Positions 8,620 through 45,460 are shown, counted from the first letter of the stretch. The stretch is DNA of 52,486 nucleotides from a virus (IMGVR_UViG_3300002855_000002:1-52486), one strand, 5' to 3'. The notes: generated by a model not told the origin, from the sequence alone. A program made the numbers and translations.

Positions 8620-8748
8620 ACAGTACAACGAAAATACGTAATACGAATATGTACTACTTGACTATATTTGAGCGATTATTGAACACTTTTTGAACACTTG
8701 TATGTGTTAGTTTAGAAGTAAGCTACTTTACGAAGGAGGTCGGTCACA

Positions 8749-9519
8749 CTGTCGAAAGCTAATGCGCACTCTAAACGTTGTAATCTCCGCCATGTCTGTA
8801 CTGCCGCGGATACACCCGCTTGCAACCGGCTTTGCTCCGCGTTCATCGGAATCCACAGCGTAACAGGCGAAGGCGGTCGAGTGGCGTCTGCGAACATTCC
8901 GCACGAATATCGGCACGTTACGCTCGCATCATCGCCAGCAGCCGAAAGTCAGCCGGACATATACGCGCACTTGACGGAATACGTAAAGACGTTCGTCCGG
9001 CAATTTCTCGACGACAGTCCGCCTATTAAATCGCTATATCTATATTCGAAAGAACCTGGCACCGGAAAGACGACGACGGCTGCCGCGACCGCCAACGAAT
9101 ATATCAACGTTCATTATATCGGATCGGTTCGACGCAATAGGCAAGCGGCAGAGCGCCCGGTATATTTCCTCGACGTTAACGAGTGGCAGACGGACTATAG
9201 CGCGTTCAACCGGCCGCGCGTCCCGGAATCGACCGCAGCTCCGGCAGCCGAACGATATTACCGCGCTATGTCAGCCGCGTCATCGGCACCGTTCGTAGTG
9301 TTCGACGATATAGGCGTGCGGGAGGCGAGCGAGCCGTTCCGTGCCGATCTGCATTCCGTAATCAATGCGCGGGTGGCGAACGGGTTGTCTTCGGTGTATA
9401 CGTCGAATATTCCGATGGCGGAAATGGCGACGCTGTTCGACCGGAGGATTGCGGACCGGTTCCGTGAGCAGACGATTGAGTATACGTTCAAAGGCGCGAG
9501 CAAACGTGGCGTACGATAA
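8749..9519 (+). CDS. DnaC/DnaI-like helicase loader ATPase, probable CTG start
   Basis: Walker A PGTGKTT, Walker B VVFDDIG, YTSN, RIADR; in-frame Cys-rich N-terminus from CTG 8749, 8 nt after AAGGAGGT. Confidence 0.85.
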   Translation: MSKANAHSKRCNLRHVCTAADTPACNRLCSAFIGIHSVTGEGGRVASANIPHEYRHVTLASSPAAESQPDIYAHLTEYVKTFVRQFLDDSPPIKSLYLYSKEPGTGKTTTAAATANEYINVHYIGSVRRNRQAAERPVYFLDVNEWQTDYSAFNRPRVPESTAAPAAERYYRAMSAASSAPFVVFDDIGVREASEPFRADLHSVINARVANGLSSVYTSNIPMAEMATLFDRRIADRFREQTIEYTFKGASKRGVR

Positions 9520-9942
9520 TTTACGTAAAACTGTGAAATGACGAGAAAACGGGAGATCGTATCTCAATCGTGACCAAACGAGGGGCTTTCGTGTGAATAC
9601 GATAGGATACGATATGACTAGCGAATTGTAATTATATGTAAATCAGAATACGATATGACACGTTATGAACCGATTTGACAACCGAATAATTGACGAGCGA
9701 TTTCGTCATAATCGTCAAATATGGCGTTTTACAGAAGTAGTACCCGTCTTATACAATCATCGTAAATCTACGAGAACGCGCGAAATAAAGAGATCGCGAA
9801 TACTACGGGAAAACGTATTTTCAAAGCAGCATTATAAATCCGATGTGCTACGGGTATTTAGTAACTGCTCTATACAGGCATTTACGACCATTGCTCGGTA
9901 TCGGATTACTGAATATCATTAATACAACGAGGAGGCGAACGC

Positions 9943-11301
9943 ATGAGTTACGTTGAATCGCTACTATCACGGATCATTGACGATAATAACGTTAAGCAAC
10001 TGGACAAGCTCGGACTTGACCGCGACTTCTTTCCGGCAGGCGTCGAACGAGATGCGTACGAATTTATCCGTAAATATACGAACGAACACGGCCGCGCACC
10101 GAGTTATGCCGCAGTCGTGACGGAAGTGCCAGACTTTACGTATATTCCGGACGTTACGGATTCATACGATTATATGGCGCGACGAATCAAGGAAACGTGG
10201 GCGCAAGAGGAAACGCAGCGAATACTCAATAGCCGAGAACATGCGGAAAAGTACGCAGAAGTCGGGTATGGTATCACATTCGAAGAGTACGTGCAATACT
10301 TGAATACGCGGCTTAACGATGTTAAAATGAGAACATACGTTCGCAAAATAATAGGAACGGATGTCGCAACGGCCAGTGACGTATTCCTGGTGGAGTACGA
10401 ACGAAGGAAATCGGGCGAATCGTTCAAAATATGGAAGTCCGCGTTTCGCACCGTTAATGATGCGATAGGTGGCGGATATTTCAGCGGTAATATGTATACG
10501 TGGTTTGCGCGATCTGGTCGCGGTAAATCTATTGTAACGTTAGTCGAAGCGATAGAAGCGGCAATGGCGGGCGCGGTCGTCATCATATGGGCGATGGAAA
10601 TGACGCTGTACGAATGCCTATCTCGTATCTTTACGTTTATATCTGCGCGGGCTGGCGTAATGGTTGCGAATATTGACGGAATGGAAATTGACGCAGGCTT
10701 CGATAACCGCGCGATGCTTGCCGGAAAATTGCCGGAACAAATAGCTGGCGAAATGACCGAGTTTATCCGTACGATCAACGAACACATTTCCGGACGTATT
10801 ATCGTTCGTGCGGTCGATGACTCGACGTTCGTTAACCGAAGTGTATCAGCATTAGAGTCCGAAATTAACGAAGCTGGCGCGGATGTCGTCTTAATCGATC
10901 CGATTTACTATATGGATTACGAGGCGAATACGTCGAAAACAGCAGGCGGTGACGTTGCGGCTACGAGTAAAGCGCTGCGACGACTTGCCGGTAAAACACA
11001 AACGGTAATTCACGTAATAACGCAGGCGGACGAGGACGAGAAGGATAAGACGACGGAAACACGCGAATTAAAACCGCCAGCACGTTCCGAAGTGAAGAAA
11101 ACGAAAGCGGTACTCGAAGATGCGGTCGCACTATTCGCGTTTGATTCCGTAAAGGAGGAAGGTCGCGGTAAAATAGCGCTAAGAAAAGGTCGCAGCGGAG
11201 GCGAGGATACAACTGTCGAAGTCGTATACCTGCCGAATTACGGGATCGTACGTGAGCCAGTAGCGGAAGATATAGCGGCACAATTCGTTGGGAATTTTTA
11301 A
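9943..11301 (+). CDS. DnaB-like replicative helicase
   Basis: ARSGRGKS Walker A, AMEM, VLIDPIY, ITQ, KGR. Confidence 0.9.
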   Translation: MSYVESLLSRIIDDNNVKQLDKLGLDRDFFPAGVERDAYEFIRKYTNEHGRAPSYAAVVTEVPDFTYIPDVTDSYDYMARRIKETWAQEETQRILNSREHAEKYAEVGYGITFEEYVQYLNTRLNDVKMRTYVRKIIGTDVATASDVFLVEYERRKSGESFKIWKSAFRTVNDAIGGGYFSGNMYTWFARSGRGKSIVTLVEAIEAAMAGAVVIIWAMEMTLYECLSRIFTFISARAGVMVANIDGMEIDAGFDNRAMLAGKLPEQIAGEMTEFIRTINEHISGRIIVRAVDDSTFVNRSVSALESEINEAGADVVLIDPIYYMDYEANTSKTAGGDVAATSKALRRLAGKTQTVIHVITQADEDEKDKTTETRELKPPARSEVKKTKAVLEDAVALFAFDSVKEEGRGKIALRKGRSGGEDTTVEVVYLPNYGIVREPVAEDIAAQFVGNF

Positions 11302-11379
11302 TTCCACTATTTACAAACGAACCGAACCGTTGTATCATAAAATTTGCACCAAAAAATGATTCATAAGGTGGTTCGTTAA

Positions 11380-11733
11380 ATGGGTGAGAGCAAACTAACT
11401 AATGTAATTAAATCCTTTACAGAAAAAGAGAATAATACAACGAGTATCTTAGATAAGCAAGTACGTTTCTCTATTTCGCTATCTAATTTACAAAGTAAGA
11501 AATTAGACGTGTTAGTTGACATAATAGGATTAAGCAAGCAGGAGTTTATTGCTAAAGTCCTTGATGCCGCTATGATCGATTTGGAGGGTGAGCTTAATTT
11601 GATAGACTCCACTTCAATCGATACATTCGGACATAAACAGTACCACTATAAAACTAAGTACGTTAGGGAAATTTTAGCGAAGTTAGGCATCACAGAGGAC
11701 GAATGGTACGATATGCGTTCTAAAAATATGTAA
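11380..11733 (+). CDS. AT-rich moron-like hypothetical protein, possibly DNA-binding
   Basis: Composition shift; inserted between helicase and primase; TTTACA...TATCAT promoter-like sequence upstream. Confidence 0.6.
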   Translation: MGESKLTNVIKSFTEKENNTTSILDKQVRFSISLSNLQSKKLDVLVDIIGLSKQEFIAKVLDAAMIDLEGELNLIDSTSIDTFGHKQYHYKTKYVREILAKLGITEDEWYDMRSKNM

Positions 11734-11747
11734 GGCGGTGATGCACG

Positions 11748-12674
11748 ATGATTGACGTACGCACCGAACTCGAAGCGTTTCACTGGACGAACGCGACGTG
11801 GACAAGCGGTAAGTTAATCGCAGCAAGTCCGTTAAGGTACGAGCAACATCCGTCATTTGCGGTAATGTTAGATCACGGAGGTTGGCGGGATTGGGGCGCA
11901 GATGATCCGTATTGGCAAAGCGGAAACTTTACGAAGCTACTCGCATTCCTCCGTAACGAGACATACGAAGAAACCGCGGAGTACCTATCAGCAAAATACG
12001 GTGACGGTTCAATATTAACGTATGACGACGAAGGCCGCCCGATATTCCGACCGCCCGACCTTCTGCAACCACGAATCAAGCCGCGACGCATTCCGCAGTA
12101 CATACTAGACAATTACCGCTATCGTTCCGACTATCTCGGACGACGCGGAATCAGCGAAGATATTCAGCGGTTAATGGCGATAGGTTACGATATGGATTCG
12201 AAGGCCGTTACAATTCCGTGGTTCAACTCGGACGGATCGCTCGGCAACGTCATGTACCGGAAAACGCGTGGCAAGACGTTTTGGTATCGGAAGGACAGCC
12301 GACCAATTGGCGAAATGCTATACGGCATTCATCTATCGTACAAGCACCGGCTGAAATCTGCGGCAATCGTGGAGGCGCCTATCGACGGTCTGACGCTTAT
12401 GTCGAATGGGGTTTACGGAATAGCGACGGGCGGAACAGCGGTAACGGATGCGAAAATTGCGCTAATACTGCGGTCGCCTATCGAGGAGTTAACGATATGG
12501 CGGGACCAGGACGGGGCCGGCCGCACGTGGCAAAGACGGCTAGTTACGGCACTCCGCGGCAAGATTCGTTTGAAAATTGCGAAAATTCCGAAGGGGTACA
12601 AGGACGTTAACGAAATGGTGTGCGCGGGCGTTCGAGTAGATGACGTAAATATTCGTAGTGTTACCATTTTTTGA
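11748..12674 (+). CDS. DNA primase (TOPRIM)
   Basis: YLGRRGIS, IVEAPID, DQDGAG, KDVNE. Confidence 0.88.
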   Translation: MIDVRTELEAFHWTNATWTSGKLIAASPLRYEQHPSFAVMLDHGGWRDWGADDPYWQSGNFTKLLAFLRNETYEETAEYLSAKYGDGSILTYDDEGRPIFRPPDLLQPRIKPRRIPQYILDNYRYRSDYLGRRGISEDIQRLMAIGYDMDSKAVTIPWFNSDGSLGNVMYRKTRGKTFWYRKDSRPIGEMLYGIHLSYKHRLKSAAIVEAPIDGLTLMSNGVYGIATGGTAVTDAKIALILRSPIEELTIWRDQDGAGRTWQRRLVTALRGKIRLKIAKIPKGYKDVNEMVCAGVRVDDVNIRSVTIF

Positions 12675-12965: not shown

Positions 12966-13005
12966 CGAGTTCCTCCAAAAAATAAATATTAAATAATTTT
13001 TGAAA

Positions 13006-13043
13006 AAGTGTGCCGAATTGAAATGGCATCCGACTATATAAGT
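13006..13043 (+). promoter_or_regulatory. Phage-specific bipartite motif, copy 2 (upstream of the sigma-like gene)
   Basis: AAGTGTGCCGA-N14-CGACTATATAAGT. Confidence 0.75.
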
Positions 13044-13062
13044 GAAAAGGAGATGATATTGG

Positions 13063-16103: not shown

Positions 16104-16134
16104 GCGTTATTATTCGGATAAGGAGGCGATTTTT

Positions 16135-16557
16135 ACGGCACACGTAACGGAACGTACCGGTAAGTATTCGGAATTAATCGCAAGGGCGGCTTTGCTCGCT
16201 AACGGCTGGACGGTGCATACGTCGGACACGGACGAGGCGTACGATATTCTCGCGACTGATCCGCTAAATGGCGAACACTACCGTATCCAAGTGAAAACGA
16301 TCCGGCAGCGCAGCGACCGAGGCGGGGAACTCGTTGTCTATGCGAAAAAAGGAAATGGCGAGCCATATACGAAGTCCGACGCTGATTCGATAATTGGCGT
16401 GTGGTGTCCGGATGGCGCAGCGGTGCCTCGCGTATTCATGTTCGAAGTACGCGGAATTGGCGAGTATTGGGCGGGCGAGCAGCGTGCGACCGAGCGATGG
16501 GGCGAACTTAATATCGCGTTAGACCGCGAAATCGAAAGCGTGGCGTATGCGATATGA
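16135..16557 (+). CDS. PD-(D/E)XK endonuclease, probable ACG start
   Basis: GKYSE...LLANG, YD, IQVKT motifs; the GxxxE helix lies upstream of the first TTG; ACG is 8 nt after TAAGGAGG. Confidence 0.75.
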   Translation, partial: TAHVTERTGKYSELIARAALLANGWTVHTSDTDEAYDILATDPLNGEHYRIQVKTIRQRSDRGGELVVYAKKGNGEPYTKSDADSIIGVWCPDGAAVPRVFMFEVRGIGEYWAGEQRATERWGELNIALDREIESVAYAI

Positions 16558-20645: not shown

Positions 20646-20882
20646 ATGGACGTTCATTTTAGAATAGGTGATCGAGGATACATCGTTCGTCTTTCCGGGA
20701 AAAATATTGCGTTTGTTGAGAATTTTTCTTGTACTATCTACTGGATAGAGGATGATGAATCAATTGTCGTGAAGGACGATGATGGTATCGTATATAAACT
20801 ACGAGAACAGGAGTATTTTATTGCACAACACGATAAACTCACCGGCACACAGATCATTGTTACAAAAAAGGAGGCGGTATAA
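20646..20882 (+). CDS. Hypothetical protein
   Basis: AGGAGG SD then ATG. Confidence 0.65.
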   Translation: MDVHFRIGDRGYIVRLSGKNIAFVENFSCTIYWIEDDESIVVKDDDGIVYKLREQEYFIAQHDKLTGTQIIVTKKEAV

Positions 20883-21941
20883 ATCGGACATTTCCAACGA
20901 ATCAGATACGAAGAACCAACGGAAACACAACGAACATTAGTCGAAGAAATCCGCGACAACTTCCGCAGCTTCCTCGATAATTACCATAGTTTACCGGAAG
21001 TATACGACGATGCGCTCGACGCCTGGCTTCACCGTATTTATGCGGACGTACAATCGGACAAGTCGCGCAAAGTTTGGCCGCCTCGTCATATGCCGTATTT
21101 CTCGCCATCGTCCGCGAACTCCGATCCGCGCGAGTTATACGAAAAAGTCCGGGGCGCCAAACGTGAACGTACAGGGCAACCTCCGCATCAAGGACGATGG
21201 ACGCGAATCGGAACTGCGGTGGGCGATACGATACAGCGCGACATTCTCTTTGCGGAGAAGCATACGAAAAATCCTCGTTTCAGATTCGAACGTAACGAAC
21301 GCGACGAGCCAATGTTCGAGGACTTCGCGAAGGTCAGCCGCGAGATAACCGTCGGCAATACGAAGTTTGCGCTATACGGCACATGCGATGGAATCATGAC
21401 GTACGTGACCGAAGATGGCGAGCAAATCCGCGTTGGACTCGAAGTTAAATCGAAACAAGGAACGTATGCGAAAACGTCCGAATTTAGCCAACGCAATGGT
21501 CCCGAAGAAGATCACGCAAAACAGACGATATGTTATTCGGTTATGTACGATAAGCCGGACGCTCACATCGACTATTACGTCATCCTCTACGTCAACGCGT
21601 CGAAAAAGGCGTGGGAAATGACTCCGGAAGAATACGAAAAGAATCCGGACATTGCCGTACATGTCGTCGAGATTACGAACGATATGCGGGCGGACTTGAT
21701 GCGGCATTTCGCGGGAATCGTAGAGGCTGCCGCTAATGGAACGCCACCACCGCTCGACTTATCGAAGTGGACGTTTAACGGATACAAGGCAGCATGTGCA
21801 GCCGGATTAACGGACGACGAGATGGCGGCACTCGAACGACAAGTCGACGCGGCAAAACGTAGCGGAATGAAGGACTGGCAGAAGCAGGCGTATGTATCGG
21901 CATTGGCGGAGATTAAACAATTACGTGGGGAGGCGGTTTAG
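20883..21941 (+). CDS. Cas4/RecB-like PD-(D/E)XK exonuclease, probable ATC start
   Basis: FSPSS, GTCDG, LEVKSK, HAKQTICY; the frame is open from ATC 20883 (8 nt after AAGGAGG), 69 codons before the first ATG. Confidence 0.8.
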   Translation: MGHFQRIRYEEPTETQRTLVEEIRDNFRSFLDNYHSLPEVYDDALDAWLHRIYADVQSDKSRKVWPPRHMPYFSPSSANSDPRELYEKVRGAKRERTGQPPHQGRWTRIGTAVGDTIQRDILFAEKHTKNPRFRFERNERDEPMFEDFAKVSREITVGNTKFALYGTCDGIMTYVTEDGEQIRVGLEVKSKQGTYAKTSEFSQRNGPEEDHAKQTICYSVMYDKPDAHIDYYVILYVNASKKAWEMTPEEYEKNPDIAVHVVEITNDMRADLMRHFAGIVEAAANGTPPPLDLSKWTFNGYKAACAAGLTDDEMAALERQVDAAKRSGMKDWQKQAYVSALAEIKQLRGEAV

Positions 21942-22175: not shown

Positions 22176-22400
22176 TTGATTAGAAAAGTATGGTCCGGTA
22201 TTTTATACGGGTTGGTTTTGTTCGTATGTAGCTTCATATTACTTTTAGTCTTTATCTTATCGTACTTGTTCGTCACAACTGGCGGAGTACTGATGTTAAC
22301 GGTTTTTGTAATGTTGTTCATTGGCGTAGGTGTGGGCGTTTATACCGAAACTAAAGGCGGTGATGATCGTAACGACAACGAAAACACTACGCAAGACTAA
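22176..22400 (+). CDS. Small two-TM membrane protein
   Basis: GGAGG SD then TTG; hydrophobic. Confidence 0.6.
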   Translation: MIRKVWSGILYGLVLFVCSFILLLVFILSYLFVTTGGVLMLTVFVMLFIGVGVGVYTETKGGDDRNDNENTTQD

Positions 22401-22914
22401 CGCAAAGCCGCCAGCCGACCGCTATCTCATCTACGATATATCGTTAACCTCGCCCGGCTTCGCGGCAATTGACGTCAACAACCGTAAGCCGACGCTCGTT
22501 GCGGTTAGCCACGTTAAGACCGACGCGAGCCAGCCGGATGGGCAGCGGTTCGCTATCGTCGAGGCGTTCGCTATTACTACCGCAAGTAAACACGGAAATA
22601 GCAACGCTATTGTAGTGCGCGAGGACTATAAGAACGCGGCAAGCAAGCGGCAGGGGCAAACGATATATGGCGCATGGGCAGCGGTCGATTCCGGACTCCA
22701 ACGGTGCGGGCTTCGTGTAAATGCCGAAATCAACGCAAGCACCGTTAAGAAAACGATAGGCGGGCACGGCAAGGCGGACAAAGCGGAAGTGGCGGCAGGC
22801 GTGCGGAGAATACTCGGACTGTCCGATGACTTCATATTTGCGACGGATGACGAAAGCGATGCGGTAGCCATTGGCTTAACGTACCTTATCGAAAAGGGGT
22901 TGATCGACGTATGA
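22363..22914 (+). CDS. RuvC-like Holliday junction resolvase (start uncertain)
   Basis: YDISLTSPG, VRED, VKKTIGGHGKADK, DDESDAVAIG. Confidence 0.8.
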   Translation: MIVTTTKTLRKTNAKPPADRYLIYDISLTSPGFAAIDVNNRKPTLVAVSHVKTDASQPDGQRFAIVEAFAITTASKHGNSNAIVVREDYKNAASKRQGQTIYGAWAAVDSGLQRCGLRVNAEINASTVKKTIGGHGKADKAEVAAGVRRILGLSDDFIFATDDESDAVAIGLTYLIEKGLIDV

Positions 22915-25850: not shown

Positions 25851-25890
25851 CGAGGTAGATTCATTTTGTTCAGTAAAGGATGATGTGTGA

Positions 25891-26031
25891 ATGGAAGGGA
25901 ACAAATTTGTAAATTGTCTCCTATGTGAAGGTGCAGGGGTTCTATACGAGCATGACGGAGAAGAATTTGACTGCCCTGCATGTGAAGGTGAGGGTGGAGA
26001 TTTTGAGAATTACCACCAGTCGGAAAGTTGA
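25891..26031 (+). CDS. Cassette gene: stand-alone CxxCxGxG zinc-finger peptide (46 aa)
   Basis: AAAGGA SD then ATG; 124/141 nt identical to 8479-8619. Confidence 0.7.
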   Translation: MEGNKFVNCLLCEGAGVLYEHDGEEFDCPACEGEGGDFENYHQSES

Positions 26032-26302: not shown

Positions 26303-27261
26303 TTGATAAAGGCCGTTAACTGGAATCGACCGGACGACGATTTCACGCAGACGTTTTGGCAGCAGAATATTATGCAGTTTTGGACGGACGAAGAAATCCC
26401 GTTATCCGACGATAAGATGGATTGGGAGCAATTATCCGAAGCCGAACGGACCGCGTATAAACACGTACTAGGCGGATTGACGCTACTCGATACGATCCAA
26501 GGTGGCGTCGGAATGCCGAAGATTCTCGAACACGTCGACGGGCTGCAACGGAAAGCGGTACTCGGATTTATGGCGATGATGGAGCAGATTCACGCCAAGT
26601 CGTACAGCTCGATATTTACGACGCTCGCCACGACCGAAGAAATCGACGAAATATTCCGCGCTGGGTCGAGACGAATCCGCAGCTCCAACGCAAAGCATCG
26701 TTAATCGTCGATTGGTACTCCGGAATTGAAACGGACGAGGACTTGTATCGCGCGATGGCAGCGTCCGTATTCCTCGAAAGTTACCTGTTTTATAGCGGAT
26801 TCTTCTATCCGTTATATCTCGCAGGACACGGAAAAATGACGGCAAGTGGCGAGATTATCGACTTAATCCTACGCGACGAGAGTATCCACGGATTATACGT
26901 CGGAGTGCTGGCGCAGGAACTATTCGCGACGTTTCCCGAAGCAAAACAGGCGGAGTTGCAGGCGGAAATACTCCGTTTCTTGACGGAGCTTTACGAAAAT
27001 GAGTGCGAATATACCGACAACGTTTACGGACAGATCGGACTCGCGGATGAGGTGAAGGCGTACGTACGATATAACGCAAATAAGGCGCTGATGAACCTCG
27101 GACTGCCGCAACATTTTCCGGACGAGCCGATTAATCCGATTGTGCAGAACGGGATTAATACGCATACGAAGCAGCACGATTTCTTTTCGAAGAAGGGTAA
27201 CGGATATGTACGTCCGCAGACCGTCGAGCATATGTCGGATGACGATTTTAATTTCGATTAA
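26303..27261 (+). pseudogene. nrdF: Class Ib RNR beta subunit, frameshifted at about 26660
   Basis: AVNWN, QFWTDEE, EQIHAKSY in one frame; WVETNPQLQRK...ESYLFYSGF, RDESIHG, HDFFS in another; extra GC in TTC CGC GC TGG. Confidence 0.85.
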
Positions 27262-27297
27262 GTGTGCCGAATCGGAATCACGTACGACTATATAAGT
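27260..27297 (+). promoter_or_regulatory. Phage-specific bipartite motif, copy 3 (upstream of thyX)
   Basis: AAGTGTGCCGA-N14-CGACTATATAAGT. Confidence 0.75.
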
Positions 27298-27328
27298 ATA
27301 AGTACGAAAATATGAAGGAGGTCGTAAA

Positions 27329-31555: not shown

Positions 31556-31636
31556 TTGCGAGTCACTCCGATCTTATTACGATTTTATAACGATATTATA
31601 ACGTAATTTTCATATAACGGAAAGGTGGCGTTAATT

Positions 31637-32992
31637 ATCGAGAAGTTTACGTATATTGAGTTGTTTGCGGGCATTGGCGGCTTCCGGCAGGCGCTCGACG
31701 AATTAGGCGGTCGCTGCGTATTTGCGTCCGAAATCGATAAGTTCGCGGCACAGTCGTACAAAGCGATATATGGCGATGCTGGCGAGTTGCATGGAGACAT
31801 TACGAAGATTGCTGCGGACGATATACCGGATCATGACGTATTAGTGGGCGGGTTCCCTTGCCAGGCGTTCAGTGTCGCGGGTCAACGTAGAGGATTCGAA
31901 GATACGCGGGGTACGTTGTTCTTCGAAATTGCACGGATTGCCTCCACCAAGCGTCCGAAGCTTTTGCTTTTAGAAAACGTTAAAGGCTTGTTATCGCACG
32001 ATGGCGGAAACACGTTCGAAGTAATGTGTCGTACGCTTAACGAAATCGGTTACGCTATCGATTTCCGCGTTCTTAATTCGAAGTATTTCGGAGTACCGCA
32101 GAATCGCGAACGTATCTTTATCGTTGCCGACCGTGACGCAGTTCATGAGCCTTGGAATATCGGTAAAGTTATCGACGTTGTGACGAAATCCAAACGACGC
32201 GTAGCGGAGTTCGTTCGTTCGTTTGACTTCGATTGGCCTGCGGAAAATGCGGTGACGAAACGGTTACGTGACGTGTTGGAACCGGTCGTTGACGAGAGAT
32301 ATTATTTGAGCGAGGAAAAGACTGCGAAGTTGGTTTCGCAGCTTGGGGATCATCCAGTTGAGCAAGGAAGTACGGGGTTATCCTTTTTAGGACTGACTGA
32401 CGAAAAGGGGATGGACAACAACCGTAGGGTATATAGTGTCGAAGGACTTTCGCCTACACTTTTAACCTGTAGCGGAGGAGGAAAAGAACCTAAGATTGCA
32501 GAGCCACAAGAGTTTTCGGACGGCAGTGGTATTTCTTACTGCATTGACGCCAATTATTCAAAAGGTACTTCGCCTGGTGATATCGGTAAGGGGCGTAGGA
32601 CGCACGTTATTCAATCGGAAGAAGTCCGACCAGTATTAACGCCCGACCGCGTAGAGAAGCGTCAAATGGGTCGTAGATTTAAGGAAGATGGCGAAGAAGC
32701 GTTTACGTTAAATACGCAGGATAAGCATGGCGTGGCTATCGGCAAATATCCACGCTACCGTATCCGTAAGCTAACACCGCGCGAATGCTGGCGATTACAG
32801 GGATTTCCGGACGCTGCGTTCGATAAAGCGAAAGTTACCGGTGTGTCCGATAGTCAACTGTATAAACAGGCAGGCAACGCGGTGAGCGTGCCCGTAATCA
32901 GCGCATTAGGCAAGCAGCTCATCACGTTGTTAGATGAGCCTCTACGGATGATTACGAGAATCGACGAAAAATTAACGGAGGTGTCCGAATGA
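31637..32992 (+). CDS. DNA (cytosine-5) methyltransferase, probably multispecific; probable ATC start
   Basis: FAGIGG, GFPCQ, ENV, QNRERI, RLQGF, QAGN; long variable region with several TRD-like segments. Confidence 0.92.
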   Translation: MEKFTYIELFAGIGGFRQALDELGGRCVFASEIDKFAAQSYKAIYGDAGELHGDITKIAADDIPDHDVLVGGFPCQAFSVAGQRRGFEDTRGTLFFEIARIASTKRPKLLLLENVKGLLSHDGGNTFEVMCRTLNEIGYAIDFRVLNSKYFGVPQNRERIFIVADRDAVHEPWNIGKVIDVVTKSKRRVAEFVRSFDFDWPAENAVTKRLRDVLEPVVDERYYLSEEKTAKLVSQLGDHPVEQGSTGLSFLGLTDEKGMDNNRRVYSVEGLSPTLLTCSGGGKEPKIAEPQEFSDGSGISYCIDANYSKGTSPGDIGKGRRTHVIQSEEVRPVLTPDRVEKRQMGRRFKEDGEEAFTLNTQDKHGVAIGKYPRYRIRKLTPRECWRLQGFPDAAFDKAKVTGVSDSQLYKQAGNAVSVPVISALGKQLITLLDEPLRMITRIDEKLTEVSE

Positions 32993-33994: not shown

Positions 33995-34020
33995 ATTTTA
34001 ACGAAAAGGAGACGGTTACT

Positions 34021-34860
34021 ATTAACGAAACAAGTCGTAAAGTATCGAAGTTACTATCGAGTGAGCCGGTCGGAGAATTAACGCCAATGTCACGAAGACT
34101 AGCTAAAGACACGGCCGGTCGTGTGTACGAATACCAATCGTTAGAGCAGGCGGAGGCGAGGCGTCGATTTCGTTTCTACAACAAGGATAAACGGACGTTT
34201 TCGTTCAGTCATATGCAGAATATACGTGAGATCACACGTAACTTATCGAATAAATATTGCGGCTACATTCTGCTTTTACAGCCGTACATTGCTTTTAAGT
34301 CGGGCGTACTCATTAAGCCAGGCCGCACGATGCAGCCGTTAACACTCCGAGAGATAGCGGATATTTGGGAAGTATCCGACCGTACCGCAAAAACGGTTAT
34401 ATCCGAGTTGGAACGTAGGTCTATTATATTTACGGACGGTAGCGGTGATTATTCGTTAAACGAGCGTTACCATTTCCGCAAAAAGGGATCGTCCGAAGTT
34501 GACGCTTTAATTAAGACGTATTCGACCGCGCTGCATTCGTTCAAGTTAACGGCAGCCGATATGGGCTTCGTATATAAACTGCTACCACACGTTCACTACG
34601 AAACGAATCTTATCTGCGCTGACCCATTCGTAGCATCCGAAAACGTCGTATTTCTAACGGATAAAGAGATAGGCGGAATCGTCGGCTTATCAGAAACGAA
34701 AACGAAAGAAGCGCTCGGTCGACTCCGTAAAGCTCGTATTATTGCGGAATGGGCGGACGTTGACGACAAGAGACGTAAGTTTACCGTGCTGAATCCGTAT
34801 GTATTTTACCGCAGAAACGATAAGCCTGACGGATTGCTACGGGCTATATTTCGGGACTAA
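34021..34860 (+). CDS. RepL-like winged-helix replication protein (ATT 34021 or ATG 34087 start)
   Basis: Two wHTH repeats ending in YSLNERY and VLNPYVFY. Confidence 0.6.
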   Translation: MNETSRKVSKLLSSEPVGELTPMSRRLAKDTAGRVYEYQSLEQAEARRRFRFYNKDKRTFSFSHMQNIREITRNLSNKYCGYILLLQPYIAFKSGVLIKPGRTMQPLTLREIADIWEVSDRTAKTVISELERRSIIFTDGSGDYSLNERYHFRKKGSSEVDALIKTYSTALHSFKLTAADMGFVYKLLPHVHYETNLICADPFVASENVVFLTDKEIGGIVGLSETKTKEALGRLRKARIIAEWADVDDKRRKFTVLNPYVFYRRNDKPDGLLRAIFRD

Positions 34861-35203: not shown

Positions 35204-35416
35204 ATGGAAATGAGCGCTAAAATTATAGGGATGTTAAACGAGGACACGAAAGCAAGAGCTTTACTTGAAACTTTTAACGCAAAGGCTCGCGAAAAGGGTT
35301 TGTCTAATGATGAATATGCTAAGGCGCGTGAAGTGGTGTTATTAATGGCAATGTATCAAAATAAAGAAGTTATGGCAGAGATGGCAAACGAAATTTGGGA
35401 AGCGGTAAATAACTAA
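35204..35416 (+). CDS. Small hypothetical protein in its own transcription unit
   Basis: GGGAGG SD then ATG; own promoter and terminator. Confidence 0.7.
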   Translation: MEMSAKIIGMLNEDTKARALLETFNAKAREKGLSNDEYAKAREVVLLMAMYQNKEVMAEMANEIWEAVNN

Positions 35417-35417
35417 T

Positions 35418-35447
35418 AAAGAAAGGGCCTTCGGGCCTTTTTCTTTT
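35418..35447. terminator. Intrinsic terminator
   Basis: AAAGGGCC-TTCG-GGCCTTTT. Confidence 0.8.
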
Positions 35448-35487
35448 ATTAACGTTATAGGCGGAACCTATCAAGGCATATCGTAAA

Positions 35488-35540
35488 ATAGGTACCCTTT
35501 TTTGCACGAAATAGGCTAGATAGGTACCCTTTTTTGCACG
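35488..35540. repeat. Two exact 21-bp direct repeats ATAGGTACCCTTTTTTGCACG, 32-bp period
   Basis: 35488-35508 and 35520-35540. Confidence 0.9.
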
Positions 35541-36685
35541 GAGCCTAATCGCTGATATCGCTTGCTGGGCGCGGGGTTTCAGCGTTTCTATCGGAAAAAT
35601 CACGAAATTATATCTTATCTTATAAAGAGATTACGAAAAGTGTACGGTCACGTTCGTTCTATCCGAAAGGCTGCGAATATTAACGTTATACTACCAAAAC
35701 ACTGTCACAGTTACGGTATATGTTGAGAAGCCAATCGGAGTATTCTGGTACATTACGAAGGGGCTTGCGGAATACTTCTCCGTTTGGTTACGAAAGGTAA
35801 TCGGTTGTATCCGAATGGAATCCGGTAGAGTACGAATCTAGCGCTATTAATCCGGATCAACTCCGCCAGTAAAAGATATCAGATAATCTATACTTCGTAT
35901 ATCTTATCTGAACGTTACTAAAAGAATAATTAATATAGTCCGGTCTAGCCGAAAGGCTGGGCCGGTATTTGTTTGGAATCGAAGATTCCTCGTACATTCC
36001 CGAACAGTCATTATGACTGAACGTGAATCAACGTTATAGTAACGAATGCCTAACGTTACTATCCGTAACCCTACGGTTATTATCGTAACCGAACCGTATG
36101 CAATCGGAACCTTACGATCATATTCGTAGCTATTATATGTAGCGATATTATTCGTACCATTCCGTAAGGTTCCGACGATAATACGACCGTATAAGCTCCG
36201 TAAGGTATCGGAGGTATATTCCGTAAGGGTAAACGCGTAGGAACCGTATAACGACCGATAACACCGAGTACAACCGTATATGTAGAGCAACGGTATGCTA
36301 ACGTATGTTACCGATATGATAACGACTATTATCGTATAACACTTGCTGGCGGCACGGACCGGACGCCCTCCGAAAACTCACGGGGTCATCCGTAGAGTAA
36401 CGTACGATTCCGCCTATTTCGTTTGCACTATTACGCATATTTACGGAAAGTGAGCGGATCGTGGCGGTAGGGTAACGGTGGAGATAACGTTGAGAATGGC
36501 GTAGTGGCGCGGGTTACGGGGGATTTCGGAGGGTATCGGAGATATGACCAAAACAAGACTTTTATTCATATGTAGGTCGCGTTAATGCGGTAAAGTGTCG
36601 ATCCCCCAACGGGTATGGCTGATTAGGGTTCGGTAACCGTTCGGAAGTTGCGTACAAAAATTTAATCTCGGGGAGGTCGTTTATC

Positions 36686-37345
36686 ATACGTACATGTACG
36701 AAGTGTAATCGTCAAGAACCGGAAGTTAAATTTGCAGGACACCATAAAAAGTGTAACGGATGTAGGAACGCTGACTCCGTAGAATATCGTCGCGAATATC
36801 AACGTAAACGACGAGCGGAGAGTCCTGAAACTTCACGTGAATACAGTCGGAGGAAAACGCAAGAGTATCGCGCCAGGCATCCGCACCGGATATTCCTATC
36901 TACGTCGAATTATCTCGCTAAACGAGCGGACGTATTTTCGAATTTAACCGAAGAACAGGCGGTAGACTTATACGAACTACCGGAAGTCTGCTCGTATTGC
37001 GGCCGTACAGATACGGAGGCAGCCGAAAAGAAGGCGTTCTGTATCGATCATATTATACCGATGGTTCAAGGCGGGCCAAATAGCCGCTGGAACCTTACGA
37101 AATCCTGTAACGGATGTAATTCGTCTAAACAATCGTCATCACTTCGCGACTTCTACGAGAGAACTCCGGAATTTACGCCCGACCGCTTTAATGAAGTCGT
37201 TCGTACTATGGCGGAGCTGTCCGGATATTCAATCGAACATATCAACGAATTACTAACGCAATCATATGCATTTGAACAGGCGCACCGACGCGAACGGGAG
37301 CGCCTTTTATCGTTGCTAGGCGGACATACGGTTGTAGCCGTATAA
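36686..37345 (+). CDS. HNH endonuclease upstream of terminase, probable ATA start
   Basis: Open frame RTCTKC...CNGC...CSYC...IDHIIPMVQGGPNSRWNLTKSCNGCNSSK; no ATG/GTG/TTG before 37061; ATA is 8 nt after GGGGAGGT. Confidence 0.85.
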   Translation: MRTCTKCNRQEPEVKFAGHHKKCNGCRNADSVEYRREYQRKRRAESPETSREYSRRKTQEYRARHPHRIFLSTSNYLAKRADVFSNLTEEQAVDLYELPEVCSYCGRTDTEAAEKKAFCIDHIIPMVQGGPNSRWNLTKSCNGCNSSKQSSSLRDFYERTPEFTPDRFNEVVRTMAELSGYSIEHINELLTQSYAFEQAHRRERERLLSLLGGHTVVAV

Positions 37346-39621: not shown

Positions 39622-39639
39622 CGAAAGGAGGACGTTAAT

Positions 39640-41178: not shown

Positions 41179-41981
41179 CGGAGCGAGATATCGAAACGCT
41201 AGTCAAAGCGTATAAAGACGCAGTTAAACGTATACGAGCGGAATTATTATCGCTTGACTTAACGGATATGTCGCGGGCTATTACCGAAGCCGCTCTCCGC
41301 GAAGTTGCCGGCATATTACGCGAGCTTAACGAAGAATCCGCGTTATGGGTTGCGGAGCATGTGCCGGAAGTCGGACGGCAGGCTGTAGCGGAAACTATCG
41401 TAATGCTCGGAGCCGCGGAAAGCTTACGGGAAGCACGCGAAATTATGACGTTTAGCCGAATGAACCAAACGCTTGTTAACGCAGTTATCGAGGATACGCA
41501 GGCGGATTTATTCGCGGTTACACAAAACATAACTAAGCGAGTTAGAACGGTCGTCCGAACAGTGGCTGGTGAGTCGATGCGAGCGAATGTGGTGGCCGGT
41601 ATTAACGGACGGAAGACAATTAGCCGAGAGATACTCACAAAAATGCGGACAGAACTCGGTAAGGCGGTGGATACTGGTATCATCGACGTAGCTGGGAACC
41701 GATGGGAGCCGCAAGTTTACGTCGATATGTTAGTCCGTACGAAAATAGCGGCAACCGCTCGCGAGGTACGAATAAACGAAGCGGTCAGCCGTGGCGTTAT
41801 GTACGGACGCATATCGAAACATGGCGCGACGGATGCGTGCCGAGATTACGAAGGAATGATCGTAAAGCTAGTACCGGAGGCTCCCGGTGATTATCCGTAT
41901 ATTGGCGACTTGCCGAGAAACAAAATTTTCCATCCAAATTGTCGTCATCAGATTTTACCGGTGAGAAATCCGGAGAAATAG
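41175..41981 (+). CDS. Minor capsid / head morphogenesis protein
   Basis: MLVRT, C-terminal FHPNCRH. Confidence 0.8.
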   Translation: MTERDIETLVKAYKDAVKRIRAELLSLDLTDMSRAITEAALREVAGILRELNEESALWVAEHVPEVGRQAVAETIVMLGAAESLREAREIMTFSRMNQTLVNAVIEDTQADLFAVTQNITKRVRTVVRTVAGESMRANVVAGINGRKTISREILTKMRTELGKAVDTGIIDVAGNRWEPQVYVDMLVRTKIAATAREVRINEAVSRGVMYGRISKHGATDACRDYEGMIVKLVPEAPGDYPYIGDLPRNKIFHPNCRHQILPVRNPEK

Positions 41982-42061
41982 GCGAAAGCCCGACCGAACG
42001 TACACGTCGTTAAACTGATACGGATATTATAGTCGACGGACTGTAAACGGTGAGGTAACGA

Positions 42062-42751
42062 ATGAAACACGATAAACTAACGAAGTATAGATTTCCGTTA
42101 AACTTACAGACGTTCAGCGAGCCGGAAACGAATGATCCAATTGATCCGGAGCCAACACCGGAGCCTAAAACGGTAACTATGACGCAGGACGAACTTAACG
42201 CGTTAATTGCGAAGGAAAAGGCGAAAGCCAAGAAGCCTTACGCTAATTACGATGAAATCTCCGCTAAACTAGCTGAATTGGAAAAAGCAGAAGAACAACG
42301 TAAACTTGCGGAAATGTCCGAGCAGGAACGCATTCAAGCGGAACTATCAACGTATAAAAAAGCCGCAGAAGAAGCGGAAGCAGCGCGAAGCCAAGCGTTA
42401 GAACTTGCGAATCAACGCTCGATTAAGGCGGAATTTAAGCTTGCGGCAGCAGGCGCTAATATCCGTGCAGACGCGTTAGAGGATGCGTACATTCTCGTTG
42501 ATAAGTCGGGTATTACCGTAGACGAAGGCGGCAACGTTGTAGGCGTGAGCGAGGCGTTAGAGGCGCTAGTTACGGCTAAACCGTACCTAATCGAAGTCAA
42601 ACAGCCGCAGAATCCGAAGATTATCGGAGAGCCGAACAATCCGAAAGAGGAAGAACGCAAGACGCTGCAAGCGCAATTAGACGACGCGAAGAAACGTAAG
42701 GACTTCGGTAAAGTCGTAGAACTTTCGAACAAATTAATTAACTTGAAATAA
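42062..42751 (+). CDS. Head scaffolding protein
   Basis: N-terminal PLNLQTF (LNLQxF) motif, TQDELN, coiled coil, KPYL. Confidence 0.8.
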   Translation: MKHDKLTKYRFPLNLQTFSEPETNDPIDPEPTPEPKTVTMTQDELNALIAKEKAKAKKPYANYDEISAKLAELEKAEEQRKLAEMSEQERIQAELSTYKKAAEEAEAARSQALELANQRSIKAEFKLAAAGANIRADALEDAYILVDKSGITVDEGGNVVGVSEALEALVTAKPYLIEVKQPQNPKIIGEPNNPKEEERKTLQAQLDDAKKRKDFGKVVELSNKLINLK

Positions 42752-42754
42752 AGG

Positions 42755-42784
42755 GTCGAGCGTAAACCAGCGCTTGGCTTTTTT
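42755..42784 (+). terminator. Terminator-like hairpin between scaffold and capsid genes
   Basis: GTCGAGCG...CGCTTGGC followed by T6. Confidence 0.5.
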
Positions 42785-42816
42785 ATTTATAAAAACAATT
42801 TAGGGGGAAATTATTA

Positions 42817-43938
42817 ATGACAGCACTAACATATGATTTTAAGGATCAAGTACGACAGTTAGAGGCGGGTATTTCGCTTATTCTCGAAGATGCACCTACA
42901 TTGCTAGGCTTAATTGGACTAGACGGAGAGCCACTTTATCAGACGAAGTTCGAATGGATGTCTGATAATCTTAACTCTAACCGTGCAACCGTAGCGGCAG
43001 AAGCACTTGCGGCAGCAACGAGCATTACGGTAGCGACTGGCGACGGTGAGAAGTTCCGCGTTAATGCAATCGCAGTAGCAGGTGAGGAGTACATGCAAGT
43101 TACTGCGGTAAGTGGTGACGTGGTTACTTTTGTTCGTGGATTTGACGGTACGACTGCGGCAACAATCGAGGCAGGCGACGAAATCCGTATCGTATCACGT
43201 CCGCAACTACAGGGCGCGGGTCCAGGCGTTGACGAGAGCCACGACCGTTACACAGACTACAACTTCACGCAAATTATCGAGCGCTATGCGGCAGTTTCCG
43301 GTACACAACAAGCGGTTAAAACGCACAACGTAACAAACGAGCTGGATTACCAAGTGCAACTACGTTTGAAGGAGATTCACCGCGAGCTTAACGATTGGCT
43401 GATTTACGGTCGTCGTATTCAAGGTCAACGTAATGTACCGTCAACATCCGGAGGTCTATTGAACTTTGCGGGAATCAAAGGTGCTTATAAGCAAAACGCT
43501 AGTGGCAGCGAAGTTAGCGCGAAATCCCTTAACGACTTGGCGGAGCAAGTGTACCAACGCGGAGGCGAAGTAAACACAATCATCACAAATACAGCGGGCG
43601 CACGTCAAATCTCGAAGTTTGCCGGAGACTCTATCGTAACTGAACGTACTGATACAACGTCCGGACACCGTATTCAGACGTTCGTATCCGACATCGTTAG
43701 CGGTAGCGTAGCGACCGTTGTTGTTGATCCGAACTTCCCGAAAGACAAGATTGCTCTATTCGACCGCAGCATCCTTAAACTGTCTCCGTTGCAAGGACGC
43801 GCGCTGTGGGACGAGGACGCTACTACTAAGGGCGCTGACTTCGTGGCTCGTCAGATTCGCGGTGAGTATGGAATTACAGTTAAGAACGCGAAAGAGAAAA
43901 TCGCGATCCTCGAAAATATCTCTAAATCCGTATCGTAA
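42817..43938 (+). CDS. Major capsid protein
   Basis: Position after scaffold; KFEWMSD, NFTQII, GEYGI. Confidence 0.85.
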   Translation: MTALTYDFKDQVRQLEAGISLILEDAPTLLGLIGLDGEPLYQTKFEWMSDNLNSNRATVAAEALAAATSITVATGDGEKFRVNAIAVAGEEYMQVTAVSGDVVTFVRGFDGTTAATIEAGDEIRIVSRPQLQGAGPGVDESHDRYTDYNFTQIIERYAAVSGTQQAVKTHNVTNELDYQVQLRLKEIHRELNDWLIYGRRIQGQRNVPSTSGGLLNFAGIKGAYKQNASGSEVSAKSLNDLAEQVYQRGGEVNTIITNTAGARQISKFAGDSIVTERTDTTSGHRIQTFVSDIVSGSVATVVVDPNFPKDKIALFDRSILKLSPLQGRALWDEDATTKGADFVARQIRGEYGITVKNAKEKIAILENISKSVS

Positions 43939-43990
43939 TAACAGGGGCCTAGCGGTCCCTTCTCAATAAATTAACGAAAGGATGACGAAA

Positions 43991-44302
43991 TTGGCGAAGT
44001 ATAAAGCAGCACCGTTTTATGTCGTAAATACTGGCGAATCAGACGTAAAATTCGATTGGCTAGGTGAGTACGTAACAAATAAAGCGGACGAAATAGCGGT
44101 ACTCAACGGACTTGTTCCGAAATGGATTTCGAAAGTAGACGAGCCGAAAGTCGACGATGATAATGCGGGTATAGAATCGGAAGAATCTCCGGAAATAATC
44201 GAAGAAACTAATACGACGGAGGCTGCCGTTACGGATGCGGTAGAAGTACCGGACGAAACTCCGAAACCTACTGCTAAAGGGCGCAAATCCTCCGGTAAAT
44301 AA
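43991..44302 (+). CDS. Hypothetical head-associated protein
   Basis: SD then TTG; acidic low-complexity tail. Confidence 0.6.
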   Translation: MAKYKAAPFYVVNTGESDVKFDWLGEYVTNKADEIAVLNGLVPKWISKVDEPKVDDDNAGIESEESPEIIEETNTTEAAVTDAVEVPDETPKPTAKGRKSSGK

Positions 44303-44322
44303 TCGGATGGAGGTGCGTCGAT

Positions 44323-44718
44323 ATGACGCTAAGTATAGAAAACGCGGATACTTATATTAACGAAAATTGTATCGATGTTGAGGATTGGACGGAGTCAGAC
44401 GAGGCGAAAAAACAACGGATAGTTAACGTCGCCAACCGCAAGCTTACGACCAAGTACGCTCAATACACGATACCGGACGCGGCAGTATACGAATACGCGA
44501 ACGAATTAGCAATCGCATTTAACGATACGAACCGGTTAAATATGCAAGGCGTGTCCTTCGCGTCATTACCGGGCGTGGCGAGCTTTTCTTTCCGCGATGG
44601 TGGCGGATTAGACGCTATCCTTAATAAACGGATAACTGACGCGGTGCTTGCGCTTATTTCCGAAGCCAACGACGGTGTAATGCTATCGAGACGCGTGTTG
44701 AAATGGACGGTGTTGTAA
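44323..44718 (+). CDS. Head-tail adaptor
   Basis: Position; ADTYI...W motif. Confidence 0.6.
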   Translation: MTLSIENADTYINENCIDVEDWTESDEAKKQRIVNVANRKLTTKYAQYTIPDAAVYEYANELAIAFNDTNRLNMQGVSFASLPGVASFSFRDGGGLDAILNKRITDAVLALISEANDGVMLSRRVLKWTVL

Positions 44719-45033
44719 ATGGCGATGATACCGTTAAGGCAAACAATCAACGTTTATCCGCCCGATAATGACGATCCGTGGGACCCAACTCCTGCGGAGC
44801 CATTTACGATAAAATGCCGCTTTCAAGAGAATATCGAAAAAGTCCGCAATCAGCACGGAGCCGAGGTCGTTTCGTCCGCGCAAATATTCCTCGATAAATT
44901 CGCGCCAGTTACCGTTAACCATTCGTTTGAGTACGTAGACGAGAGCGGAACAAAAATAACGTATAAGCCGCATAATGTCGCGCGCAAACGGTGGCTAAAC
45001 GGTAAGGCGATTTTAACGGTAGTATACGTATGA
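44719..45033 (+). CDS. Head closure protein
   Basis: Position; VRNQHGAEVVSSAQI. Confidence 0.6.
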   Translation: MAMIPLRQTINVYPPDNDDPWDPTPAEPFTIKCRFQENIEKVRNQHGAEVVSSAQIFLDKFAPVTVNHSFEYVDESGTKITYKPHNVARKRWLNGKAILTVVYV

Positions 45034-45046
45034 GGAGGCGTTGGCG

Positions 45047-45460
45047 ATAGCTGGAAAAGGCGGAATCGACTTTGATATTAGCGGAGTAATGGCGGGACTA
45101 GAGCGGAAGTTCTTACAAATAGAAGCGGCCGCAAAGCACGAAATGGGCGAGTGTATGGGCGACTTACTGGCGGAAAGCTCCGAGATAGCACCGTTAGATA
45201 AAGGTGTGTTGCGCGGATCGGCATGGCAAGACGTATCTTCGGATAACGGAACAATAACCGGTAGCGTGTCGTATTGGGCCGAAGAAAAAGACGGGGCACG
45301 ATTCAACTATGCGCTAAAAGTACACGAAATGGGCGAGTATAAGAATCCGACGACGCCCGGCACGCGACCGAAGTTTCTATCGGAACCGATGAAGAAGAAC
45401 GCGGATACGTATAAGCAGCGGATAGCGGACGCCATAAGCAAGGCGGTGAAGAACGGATGA
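45047..45460 (+). CDS. HK97 gp10-like neck protein, probable ATA start (TTG 45041 alternative)
   Basis: APLDKGVLRGS, YALKVHE, PKFL. Confidence 0.75.
   Translation: MAGKGGIDFDISGVMAGLERKFLQIEAAAKHEMGECMGDLLAESSEIAPLDKGVLRGSAWQDVSSDNGTITGSVSYWAEEKDGARFNYALKVHEMGEYKNPTTPGTRPKFLSEPMKKNADTYKQRIADAISKAVKNG

Follow-up and report, generated by a model that had tools for sequence, protein, structure and literature searches.

Probable near-cognate start codons behind strong Shine-Dalgarno sequences in DNA-handling genes of a Paenibacillaceae phage lineage

The virus record IMGVR_UViG_3300002855_000002:1-52486 was analysed as a whole (52,486 bp, linear, estimated completeness 81%; hereafter the window) with regard to the codons at which its genes begin. 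Almost all of its genes lie on the + strand, and a curated map of 69 + strand genes comprises 48 that start with ATG, seven with TTG, six with GTG and eight with a near-cognate codon, the RuvC-like resolvase and a neck protein being included in the last group. About one window gene in ten, mostly encoding DNA-handling enzymes, seems to begin at a near-cognate codon after a strong Shine-Dalgarno (SD) sequence. Six genes, encoding a helicase loader, a PD-(D/E)XK nuclease, a Cas4-like exonuclease, a C5 cytosine methyltransferase (methylase), a Rep-like protein and an HNH endonuclease, have no usable ATG, GTG or TTG, and in each a near-cognate codon lies 8 nt past the SD (Table 1). Such starts had been proposed in a sequence-only reading of the window, and all of the SD and start motifs that it quoted were found in place. 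The free energy of SD pairing (dG) at the near-cognate sites of the window ranges from -9.3 to -13.7, and five near-cognates (CTG, ACG, ATC, ATA and ATT) account for the SD+8 codon at all of them; compared with about 5/61 per arbitrary codon this would be far beyond chance, although the sites were chosen post hoc.

In the strong cases the downstream canonical codons either have no correctly spaced SD or cut into the family domain. The next in-frame canonical codon of the loader (SD dG -13.7) is GTG 8881, 44 codons on and only 2 nt past an SD-like match, and that of the PD-(D/E)XK gene is TTG 16192, which is residue 20 of a product whose residues 5-68 match PF11645 (profile 3-64) and residues 3-129 match phrog_5018 (profile 2-129). 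The SD of the exonuclease is encoded in the last codons of an upstream open reading frame (ORF; 20646-20882), the in-frame TAA of which abuts ATC 20883; the next ATG (21090, residue 70) follows 69 codons on with a dG of -1.5, and the phrog_1706 profile aligns from residue 45, 25 residues ahead of that codon. For the HNH gene the first ATG (37061, residue 126, dG +0.3) falls inside the HNH domain (residues 102-150). In the methylase gene ATT 31634 is also a possible start, and GTG 31625 falls inside the SD. The expectation that recognisable motifs lie upstream of the first canonical codon holds by Pfam and PHROG coordinates for the HNH endonuclease and the nuclease, and for the loader by a Cys-rich N-terminal stretch that the orthologs carry too.

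The weaker cases of the sequence-only reading fared unevenly. Ortholog anchoring (below) supports ATT 34021 of the Rep-like gene; the tail-chaperone-like gene has a canonical GTG directly after the ATC that had been claimed, and its family is canonical in 15 of 15 orthologs. The start of the RuvC-like gene is ambiguous: ATG 22363 overlaps the SD (AAAGGCGGTGA), ACG 22372 stands at the extended SD+8, and this ACG is replaced by GCG in L010, the closest ortholog. For the neck protein, which gave no match in Pfam or PHROG family searches, the motif at ATA 45047 is present and the start is only probable, 14 of 14 orthologs having ATG or GTG at the site; ATG 45030, which forms an ATGA overlap with the upstream stop, is kept in the window but is out of frame by a 17-nt difference. 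On these sequence comparisons the near-cognate start is upheld for six genes, probable for the neck protein and ambiguous for RuvC, and the chaperone start is canonical. We consider it very probable that the near-cognate sites of the window are genuine translation starts.

At the protein level the closest GenBank relatives belong to the Tripp/Halcyone group (Halcyonevirus) of Paenibacillus larvae phages, and phages of Bacillus, Sporosarcina, Enterococcus and Listeria come next; these emerged from protein-level searches, a megablast comparison of 25 kb of the window with GenBank phages having given no match. A scan of bacterial genomes with an alignment of the PD-(D/E)XK nuclease yielded 19 prophage loci, 14 in Paenibacillus, one in a Paenibacillaceae metagenome-assembled genome, and one each in Neobacillus, Brevibacillus, Sporosarcina and Peribacillus. 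As 14 of these 19 related loci lie in Paenibacillus, the host of the window phage is almost certainly a Paenibacillus. A pattern scan of viral contigs for relatives of the exonuclease found none, and its orthologs came from the flanks of other loci. In all, about 55 related loci were gathered (labels in L and G denote loci and genomes of this collection), and the ortholog of each window gene was located by tblastn. Near the aligned N-terminus a canonical codon was accepted as the start if its SD had a dG of -6 or better; otherwise a near-cognate codon was accepted at a dG of -8 or better and a spacing of 4-10, a rule that favours canonical codons. Ortholog counts were deduplicated by sequence context.

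Table 1 Positions of genes with near-cognate or disputed starts in the window and in phage Tripp, and of the phage initiator-type tRNA
Feature	Position	Strand	Initiation region or other characteristics
Initiator-type tRNA(CAU)	394..469	+	C1xA72 mismatch, GGG/CCC anticodon stem
DnaC-like helicase loader (phrog_50)	8733..9519	+	SD AAGGAGGT 8733-8740, 8-nt spacer, CTG 8749; stop at 9519
PD-(D/E)XK (PDDEXK_5) endonuclease	16119..16557	+	SD TAAGGAGG 16119-16126, 8-nt spacer, ACG 16135
Cas4-like exonuclease (phrog_1706)	20868..21941	+	SD AAGGAGG 20868-20874, 8-nt spacer, ATC 20883
RuvC-like resolvase (PF02075)	22351..22914	+	Ambiguous: ATG 22363, ATC 22366 or ACG 22372
C5 cytosine DNA methyltransferase (PF00145, residues 4-429)	31621..32992	+	SD AAAGGTGG 31621-31628, 8-nt spacer, ATC 31637
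Rep-like/helix-turn-helix protein (phrog_9501)	34005..34860	+	SD AAAGGAGA 34005-34012, 8-nt spacer, ATT 34021
HNH endonuclease (PF01844), adjoining the terminase genes	36670..37345	+	SD GGGGAGGT 36670-36677, 8-nt spacer, ATA 36686
Neck/head-tail connector-like protein	45033..45460	+	SD AGGAGG 45033-45038, 8-nt spacer, ATA 45047 (probable)
Tail-chaperone-like gene (phrog_18210)	46502..46937	+	GTG 46518 (canonical), the next codon after the claimed ATC 46515
Tripp exonuclease (TRIPP_70)	L057 14867		SD-ATC; annotated start 53 codons later
Tripp RuvC (TRIPP_71)	L057 15861		GGAGGTGACTGAGA-CTG; annotated as a 76-aa stub
Tripp DNA polymerase (TRIPP_65)	L057 10799		TAGGAGGCGATAACC-ACG; annotated start 43 codons late
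Tripp portal (TRIPP_4)	L087 3131		GAGGAGGTGAACGAGG-CTG; annotated from a GTG without SD, 42 codons late

Ortholog alignment, the check that the sequence-only reading had itself suggested, revealed, instead of a uniform ATG, a mixture of near-cognate and canonical codons at the position concerned, which rules out decay and sequencing error for six genes, namely the loader, PD-(D/E)XK nuclease, exonuclease, methylase, HNH and Rep-like genes, each of which is canonical in some orthologs at the same or the adjacent codon. The tblastn alignments with the orthologs begin at query residue 1-7 and so take in the residues encoded ahead of the first canonical codon. Loader genes have CTG at this codon in L002, L003, L006 and L038, ATA in L041 and L049, ATT in L050 and TTG, ATG or GTG in the rest (six near-cognate and 20 canonical starts among 26 orthologs). 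Inspection by eye of five methylase orthologs found SD-8-ATA in L017 and L018, TTG in L019 and ATG in L020 and L022 (two near-cognate, three canonical, in line with the count given by the start rule), and the two HNH orthologs have ATA (L017) and TTG (L031). In the Rep orthologs of L085 (GTG) and L086 (ATG) the start precedes the aligned ATT of the window by one codon; the 22 N-terminal residues of the window protein align with both, closely with L085, and its internal ATG (34087) is GTA (Val) in both.

Non-canonical starts were assigned to 17 of 23 PD-(D/E)XK orthologs (nine ACG and eight ATC, beside five ATG and one TTG) and to 14 of 20 exonuclease orthologs (eight ATT, four ATC and two ATA, with four TTG and two unresolved), the junction GGAGGCGGTTTAA directly followed by ATT recurring in many of the latter. 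Among 23 RuvC orthologs 13 starts are near-cognate (seven CTG), three canonical and seven unresolved; the corresponding counts for 26 orthologs are 15, four and seven, and 20 resolved deduplicated rows including the window contain eight CTG, four ACG, three ATA and one ATC. DNA polymerase (nine of 16 near-cognate, six ATC and three ATA; five canonical, two unresolved), ribonucleotide reductase (RNR) alpha (five near-cognate, six canonical; n = 11) and TerL (six of 10 near-cognate, five ATC and one ACG; four canonical) complete the variable families, which comprise the PD-(D/E)XK nuclease, Cas4-like exonuclease, RuvC, DNA polymerase, RNR alpha, TerL, loader, methylase and HNH. The bias towards nucleases and replication proteins noticed in the window is real, and it is stronger across the clade. 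Always canonical were DnaB (0/26 non-canonical), g5858 (0/18), g14990 (0/18), g14002 (0/17) and six structural families, neck and chaperone among them (0/14-15 each). Heterogeneity of start type across 27 families was large (chi2 215, df 26), with a p value that is overstated since orthologs are related. Eleven unresolved ortholog sites inspected by eye comprised nine canonical codons with a weak SD and two mis-anchored alignments, and at none of them did a random codon stand at SD+8.

Start-codon changes were counted on quick maximum likelihood trees. At least nine changes were found among 26 PD-(D/E)XK genes, six of them switches between canonical and near-cognate codons, and eight among 24 exonuclease genes, with two such crossings. 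ATG was found as the exonuclease start only in Enterococcus phage SAP6, and neither ATG nor GTG occurs among the 23 Bacillales-phage orthologs; the missing ATG among these ATH genes is suggestive of a favoured weakness, though on the basis of few independent changes. The DnaB tree has nine changes among 29 genes, none of which leaves ATG, GTG or TTG. By this comparison the same phages keep DnaB on efficient codons and allow their nuclease genes weak ones.

Across the clade, pairing of the SD with the 16S tail was stronger at 80 near-cognate sites than at canonical sites under equal thresholds (mean dG -12.67 versus -11.66; Mann-Whitney p 0.006), and the start lay 7-9 nt from the GGAGG-like core at 74 of the 80 near-cognate sites versus 89 of 132 canonical ones. 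This strong SD and tight spacing agree with the "8 nt after strong SD" of the sequence-only reading, and also with the extended SD described for non-canonical starts of S. aureus (PMC13009471). The gap to the previous + strand ORF is ~130 nt for the loader, ~440 nt for the methylase, ~107 nt for Rep and ~1.3 kb for HNH, and owing to these long gaps the four genes need de novo initiation and not only coupling. A stop-start juxtaposition (TAA directly followed by ATC, with the SD in the upstream ORF) occurs at the exonuclease and at none of these four. Stop readthrough joining ORF 20646-20882 to the exonuclease was considered and is unlikely, as L014 has no adjacent in-frame stop and keeps SD-8-ATC.

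A detector independent of ortholog anchoring, which flags an ORF of 100 or more codons if the first strong-SD candidate from its 5' end is near-cognate, picked out 8 of 58 ORFs in the window, 62 of 403 in Paenibacillus-type prophage loci, 23 of 205 in viral relatives and 3 of 24 in Tripp. In a 400-kb sample of one host chromosome 11 of 333 were flagged, at least five of these 11 being false by Pfam coordinates (phage versus host, Fisher p 2e-8). One of the flagged host genes looks real, a yycI homolog (PF09648; L077 18637, host G006) with an apparent CTG start after GAGGAGGTGAATGTT; its next SD-led canonical codon lies 56 codons downstream and would remove the N-terminal part of the family. 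In seven variable families non-canonical starts make up 46 of 71 in Paenibacillus and Paenibacillaceae loci, compared with 3 of 20 in Neobacillus, Sporosarcina, Peribacillus, a Bacillus subtilis phage and an Enterococcus phage pooled (Fisher p 9e-5), and two of three in Brevibacillus; canonical starts were found for all orthologs from B. subtilis phage 268TH002 and from Enterococcus phage SAP6. As judged by these counts, the start-codon bias depends on both gene and host lineage, and the trait belongs to a Paenibacillaceae siphovirus and prophage lineage and not to the window alone. Neither the lineage-wide spread nor the dependence on host lineage had been seen in the sequence-only reading.

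The pattern extends to a cultured isolate. P. larvae phage Tripp has four SD-led near-cognate starts (Table 1), and all four genes are annotated 42-103 codons short; over the first 28 kb its GenBank/RefSeq entry annotates 33 + strand starts, every one of them ATG, GTG or TTG. In the available portion of a paper on 48 P. larvae phage genomes the term 'non-canonical' is absent, and start choice is described among auto-annotated starts.

Host infC, encoding initiation factor IF3, starts with ATT or ATC in the arrangement GGAGGTGG-6-ATT/ATC in five of five Paenibacillus genomes examined, and since it keeps these codons IF3 discrimination against AUH is presumably intact. A second, divergent ORF with an IF3_C domain (PF00707; 157-209 aa, 45-62 bits versus 120-137 for infC) is present in five of five Paenibacillus hosts and in the Neobacillus and Brevibacillus hosts (G006-G010, G131, G132; e.g. 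G006:C1:991964-992209), and in 13 of 121 sampled genomes of the class, all of 3.9-7.3 Mb. As a cause of the host effect this paralogue was rejected as too loose a correlate: the Neobacillus host has it with one of five starts non-canonical, and Sporosarcina is without it with two of four.

The initiator-type tRNA of the window is the first of a three-tRNA cluster (394-683), the second being a tRNA(CAU), either elongator Met or Ile2, whose acceptor stem is fully paired, and the third a tRNA-Leu(UAA); Rfam found these three tRNAs and nothing else in the window. It is 89-96% identical to initiator-type tRNAs of Paenibacillus hosts, the closest being that of the host of L049. An altered initiator tRNA or a changed code was rejected, the initiator-type tRNAs of phage and host all having a CAU anticodon, a GGG/CCC stem and C1xA72. 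A DNA search did not find the cluster in five related phage records, although an empty result of such a search proves little. The phage tRNA is context and is not needed for the start-codon pattern.

Other sequence features accompany these genes. Near 26655-26665, at a CGCGC run, the nrdF-like RNR beta gene (26303-27261) passes from one frame into another; L019, L044, L018 and L058 have it in a single frame throughout, and the split in the window is either a real frameshift or an assembly indel. A look-up of public sequencing runs for a 10-kb stretch of the window came back empty. A 51-nt element (...AAGTGTGCCGA-N14-CGACTATATAAGT...) occurs at 2603-2653, 12996-13046 and 27250-27300 (75-78% identity to the first copy), each copy lying just upstream of the SD of the following gene (GTG 2667, TTG 13063 and TTG 27329), and it looks like a phage promoter or operator. 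A 148-nt direct repeat (8472-8619 and 25884-26031, 87% identity) has one copy shortly before the loader, where it covers the 3' end of ORF 8338-8619, and the other downstream of RNR alpha. The ~1.3 kb at 35416-36686, upstream of the HNH and terminase genes, has no + strand ORF of 60 or more codons, a single 128-codon minus-strand ORF (35904-36290) and two orphan GGAGG sites, and may be a packaging or regulatory region.

Near-cognate starts that limit translation are known from cellular genes. After an SD, the AUU, AUA or AUC start of infC and the AUU start of Escherichia coli pcnB limit translation, and IF3 discriminates against them. The genes described here share the near-cognate start after an SD; those two are single cellular genes with autoregulatory or housekeeping roles, whereas in the phages 6-8 of 69 genes and whole ortholog families are involved, with five near-cognates including ACG. 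In Staphylococcus aureus, according to one report, cvfC1 (AUU), ccpN (AUA) and citZ (AUA) are attenuated by a non-canonical start combined with an extended SD, AUU or AUA with an extended SD giving ~10% (up to 30%) of the AUG reporter output, and only four non-canonical starts were found in the genome by Ribo-Ret (PMC13009471). These Firmicute sites resemble the phage sites in their extended, properly spaced SD and conserved non-canonical codon, with a mechanism that for the phage would be carried over from them; they differ in number (four sites per genome as against ~10% of genes) and in the family bias and codon turnover among ATH, ACG, CTG and canonical codons seen in the phages. For E. 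coli, a preprint by Hecht gives AUA, AUC, AUU and CUG 1-2% of AUG output and places ACG in the 0.1-1% class. The GTC start of Streptomyces sigR, which is repressed by IF3 (PMC5472188), likewise makes a non-canonical start an IF3-dependent device and could serve as a model for a switch, although sigR is one regulator gene with a codon, GTC, that is not near-cognate, and an IF3 dependence of the phage genes would be hypothetical. In its curated annotation, the B. subtilis phage SPP1, also a Firmicute siphovirus with SD-driven initiation (ribosome-binding sites for 77 of 80 ORFs), has 72 AUG, five GUG, three UUG and no non-canonical starts in 80 ORFs (PMC6316719), and it differs from the present phages in this respect as do the 268TH002 and SAP6 orthologs. 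The open-access literature searched yielded no account of near-cognate starts as a systematic feature of Paenibacillus phages or of any others. The type of mechanism is already known; as far as these searches reach, the density, the five codons including ACG, the conservation by family and the restriction by host lineage are new.

The positions, conservation and turnover of these codons, their gene and host bias and their SD context suggest that near-cognate initiation probably sets a low output of the enzymes concerned. A strong, often extended SD 7-9 nt upstream would set the P site of the 30S subunit on CUG, ACG, AUC, AUA or AUU, which the ordinary formylmethionyl-tRNA would read with one mismatch; initiation would then be inefficient and open to IF3 proofreading, and the strong SD would keep the choice of start site exact. 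The outcome would be a low fixed supply of enzymes that are needed catalytically or are harmful in excess, including DNA-damaging ones, the throttled set being nucleases, resolvase, polymerase, RNR, methylase, loader, Rep and TerL. Such genes lie in compact operons with little room for gene-by-gene transcriptional control, and stoichiometric proteins (DnaB, structural proteins) keep to ATG, GTG or TTG. Such throttling would fit the known output levels of near-cognate starts. Reduced output, selection for it and IF3 sensitivity are what we infer, and we lean towards the view that the weakness of the start was itself selected. Several points weigh against throttling. The starts are called from sequence with SD and spacing thresholds that we set, among orthologs that are related to one another. 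The six switches among 26 PD-(D/E)XK genes fit near-neutral drift as well as selection. The polymerase and TerL genes of the window start with ATG and its neck gene is non-canonical though 14 of 14 orthologs are canonical, so that gene class is a tendency and not a rule; for this singleton ATA an assembly error is conceivable, given at least one frameshift (nrdF) in the window. ACG is common here though it belongs to the 0.1-1% class in E. coli, and its commonness would therefore require a more permissive host or a very low protein demand.

Permissive Paenibacillaceae ribosomes might alternatively make ATG, NTG, ATH and ACG near-equivalent for low-demand genes, the codons then drifting under relaxed purifying selection. 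The host-lineage effect (46/71 versus 3/20 in other Bacilli), the numerous codon switches on the trees and at least one plausible host case (GAGGAGGTGAATGTT-CTG of yycI) speak for such drift, as does our reasoning that neutral change among ATG and its neighbouring codons would leave ATG in the minority. We nevertheless regard it as unlikely, though worth keeping in mind, because gene specificity is strict within the same genomes (DnaB 0/26 despite nine changes, structural families 0/14-15), the host chromosome rate is low (11/333 flagged, at least five of them false), the exonuclease start moves among ATT, ATC and ATA yet is never ATG or GTG in 23 Bacillales-phage orthologs, and the autoregulatory ATT or ATC of host infC implies a working discrimination against AUH. 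A reading compatible with attenuation, in which the near-cognate genes form a regulon that rises together when IF3 per ribosome drops or changes during infection or induction and so acts as a translational timing switch, draws on the established discrimination of near-cognates by IF3 (PMC13009471 and PMC5472188), the infC starts after GGAGGTGG in five of five Paenibacillus genomes, the IF3_C paralogue of five of five Paenibacillus hosts (13/121 genomes of the class) and the initiator-type tRNA carried by the window. No IF3-acting phage factor was identified, however, the paralogue correlates only loosely with the pattern (present in Neobacillus, 1/5; absent in Sporosarcina, 2/4), the affected genes are both early (replication) and late (TerL, portal, HNH) and so not one temporal class, and a DNA search of five related records with the same pattern did not find the tRNA cluster; we hold this regulon to be decidedly improbable. 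A broader proposal makes start-codon identity a genome-wide expression code read through host initiation fidelity: DNA-processing genes on CUG, ACG and AUH would be co-regulated by IF3 status, the IF3 paralogue or the phage initiator tRNA might participate, and host permissiveness, including effective ACG initiation, would explain the canonical Bacillus and Enterococcus orthologs. It is speculative and in our estimate quite unlikely. That the true starts are downstream canonical codons, that the stretches ahead of them are untranslated, or that the odd codons are assembly errors or decay, might be suspected from the public Tripp annotation, which uses downstream ATG or GTG for four such genes, from the frameshifted nrdF of the window and from the neck ATA that is unique to it. 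Independent assemblies, isolate genomes and a cultured phage nonetheless share these near-cognates; the downstream codons have no correctly spaced SD (exonuclease dG -1.5, HNH +0.3, loader GTG 2 nt past its match); starting there would cut short the HNH domain and the PDDEXK_5 profile; the internal ATG of Rep is Val in orthologs; and none of 11 unresolved ortholog sites showed a random codon at SD+8. Such an artefact is already contradicted for six genes and is as a whole extremely improbable.

Near-cognate starts in a tenth of a genome would be unusual, non-canonical starts numbering fewer than ten in a bacterial genome (four in S. aureus; PMC13009471). Gene callers limited to ATG, GTG and TTG truncate or fragment such genes, as in the four Tripp cases, and the errors pass into the family alignments, gene counts and structure predictions made for this group of phages. 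Seven families, with ~80 near-cognate sites between them and canonical codons at the corresponding place in other members, form a natural replicated set, which could address how far SD strength replaces start-codon identity in Firmicutes, how phages set ratios of enzymes to structural proteins translationally and whether bacterial lineages differ in initiation fidelity. The near-cognate initiation regions are, in addition, potential graded low-expression parts for Paenibacillus engineering.

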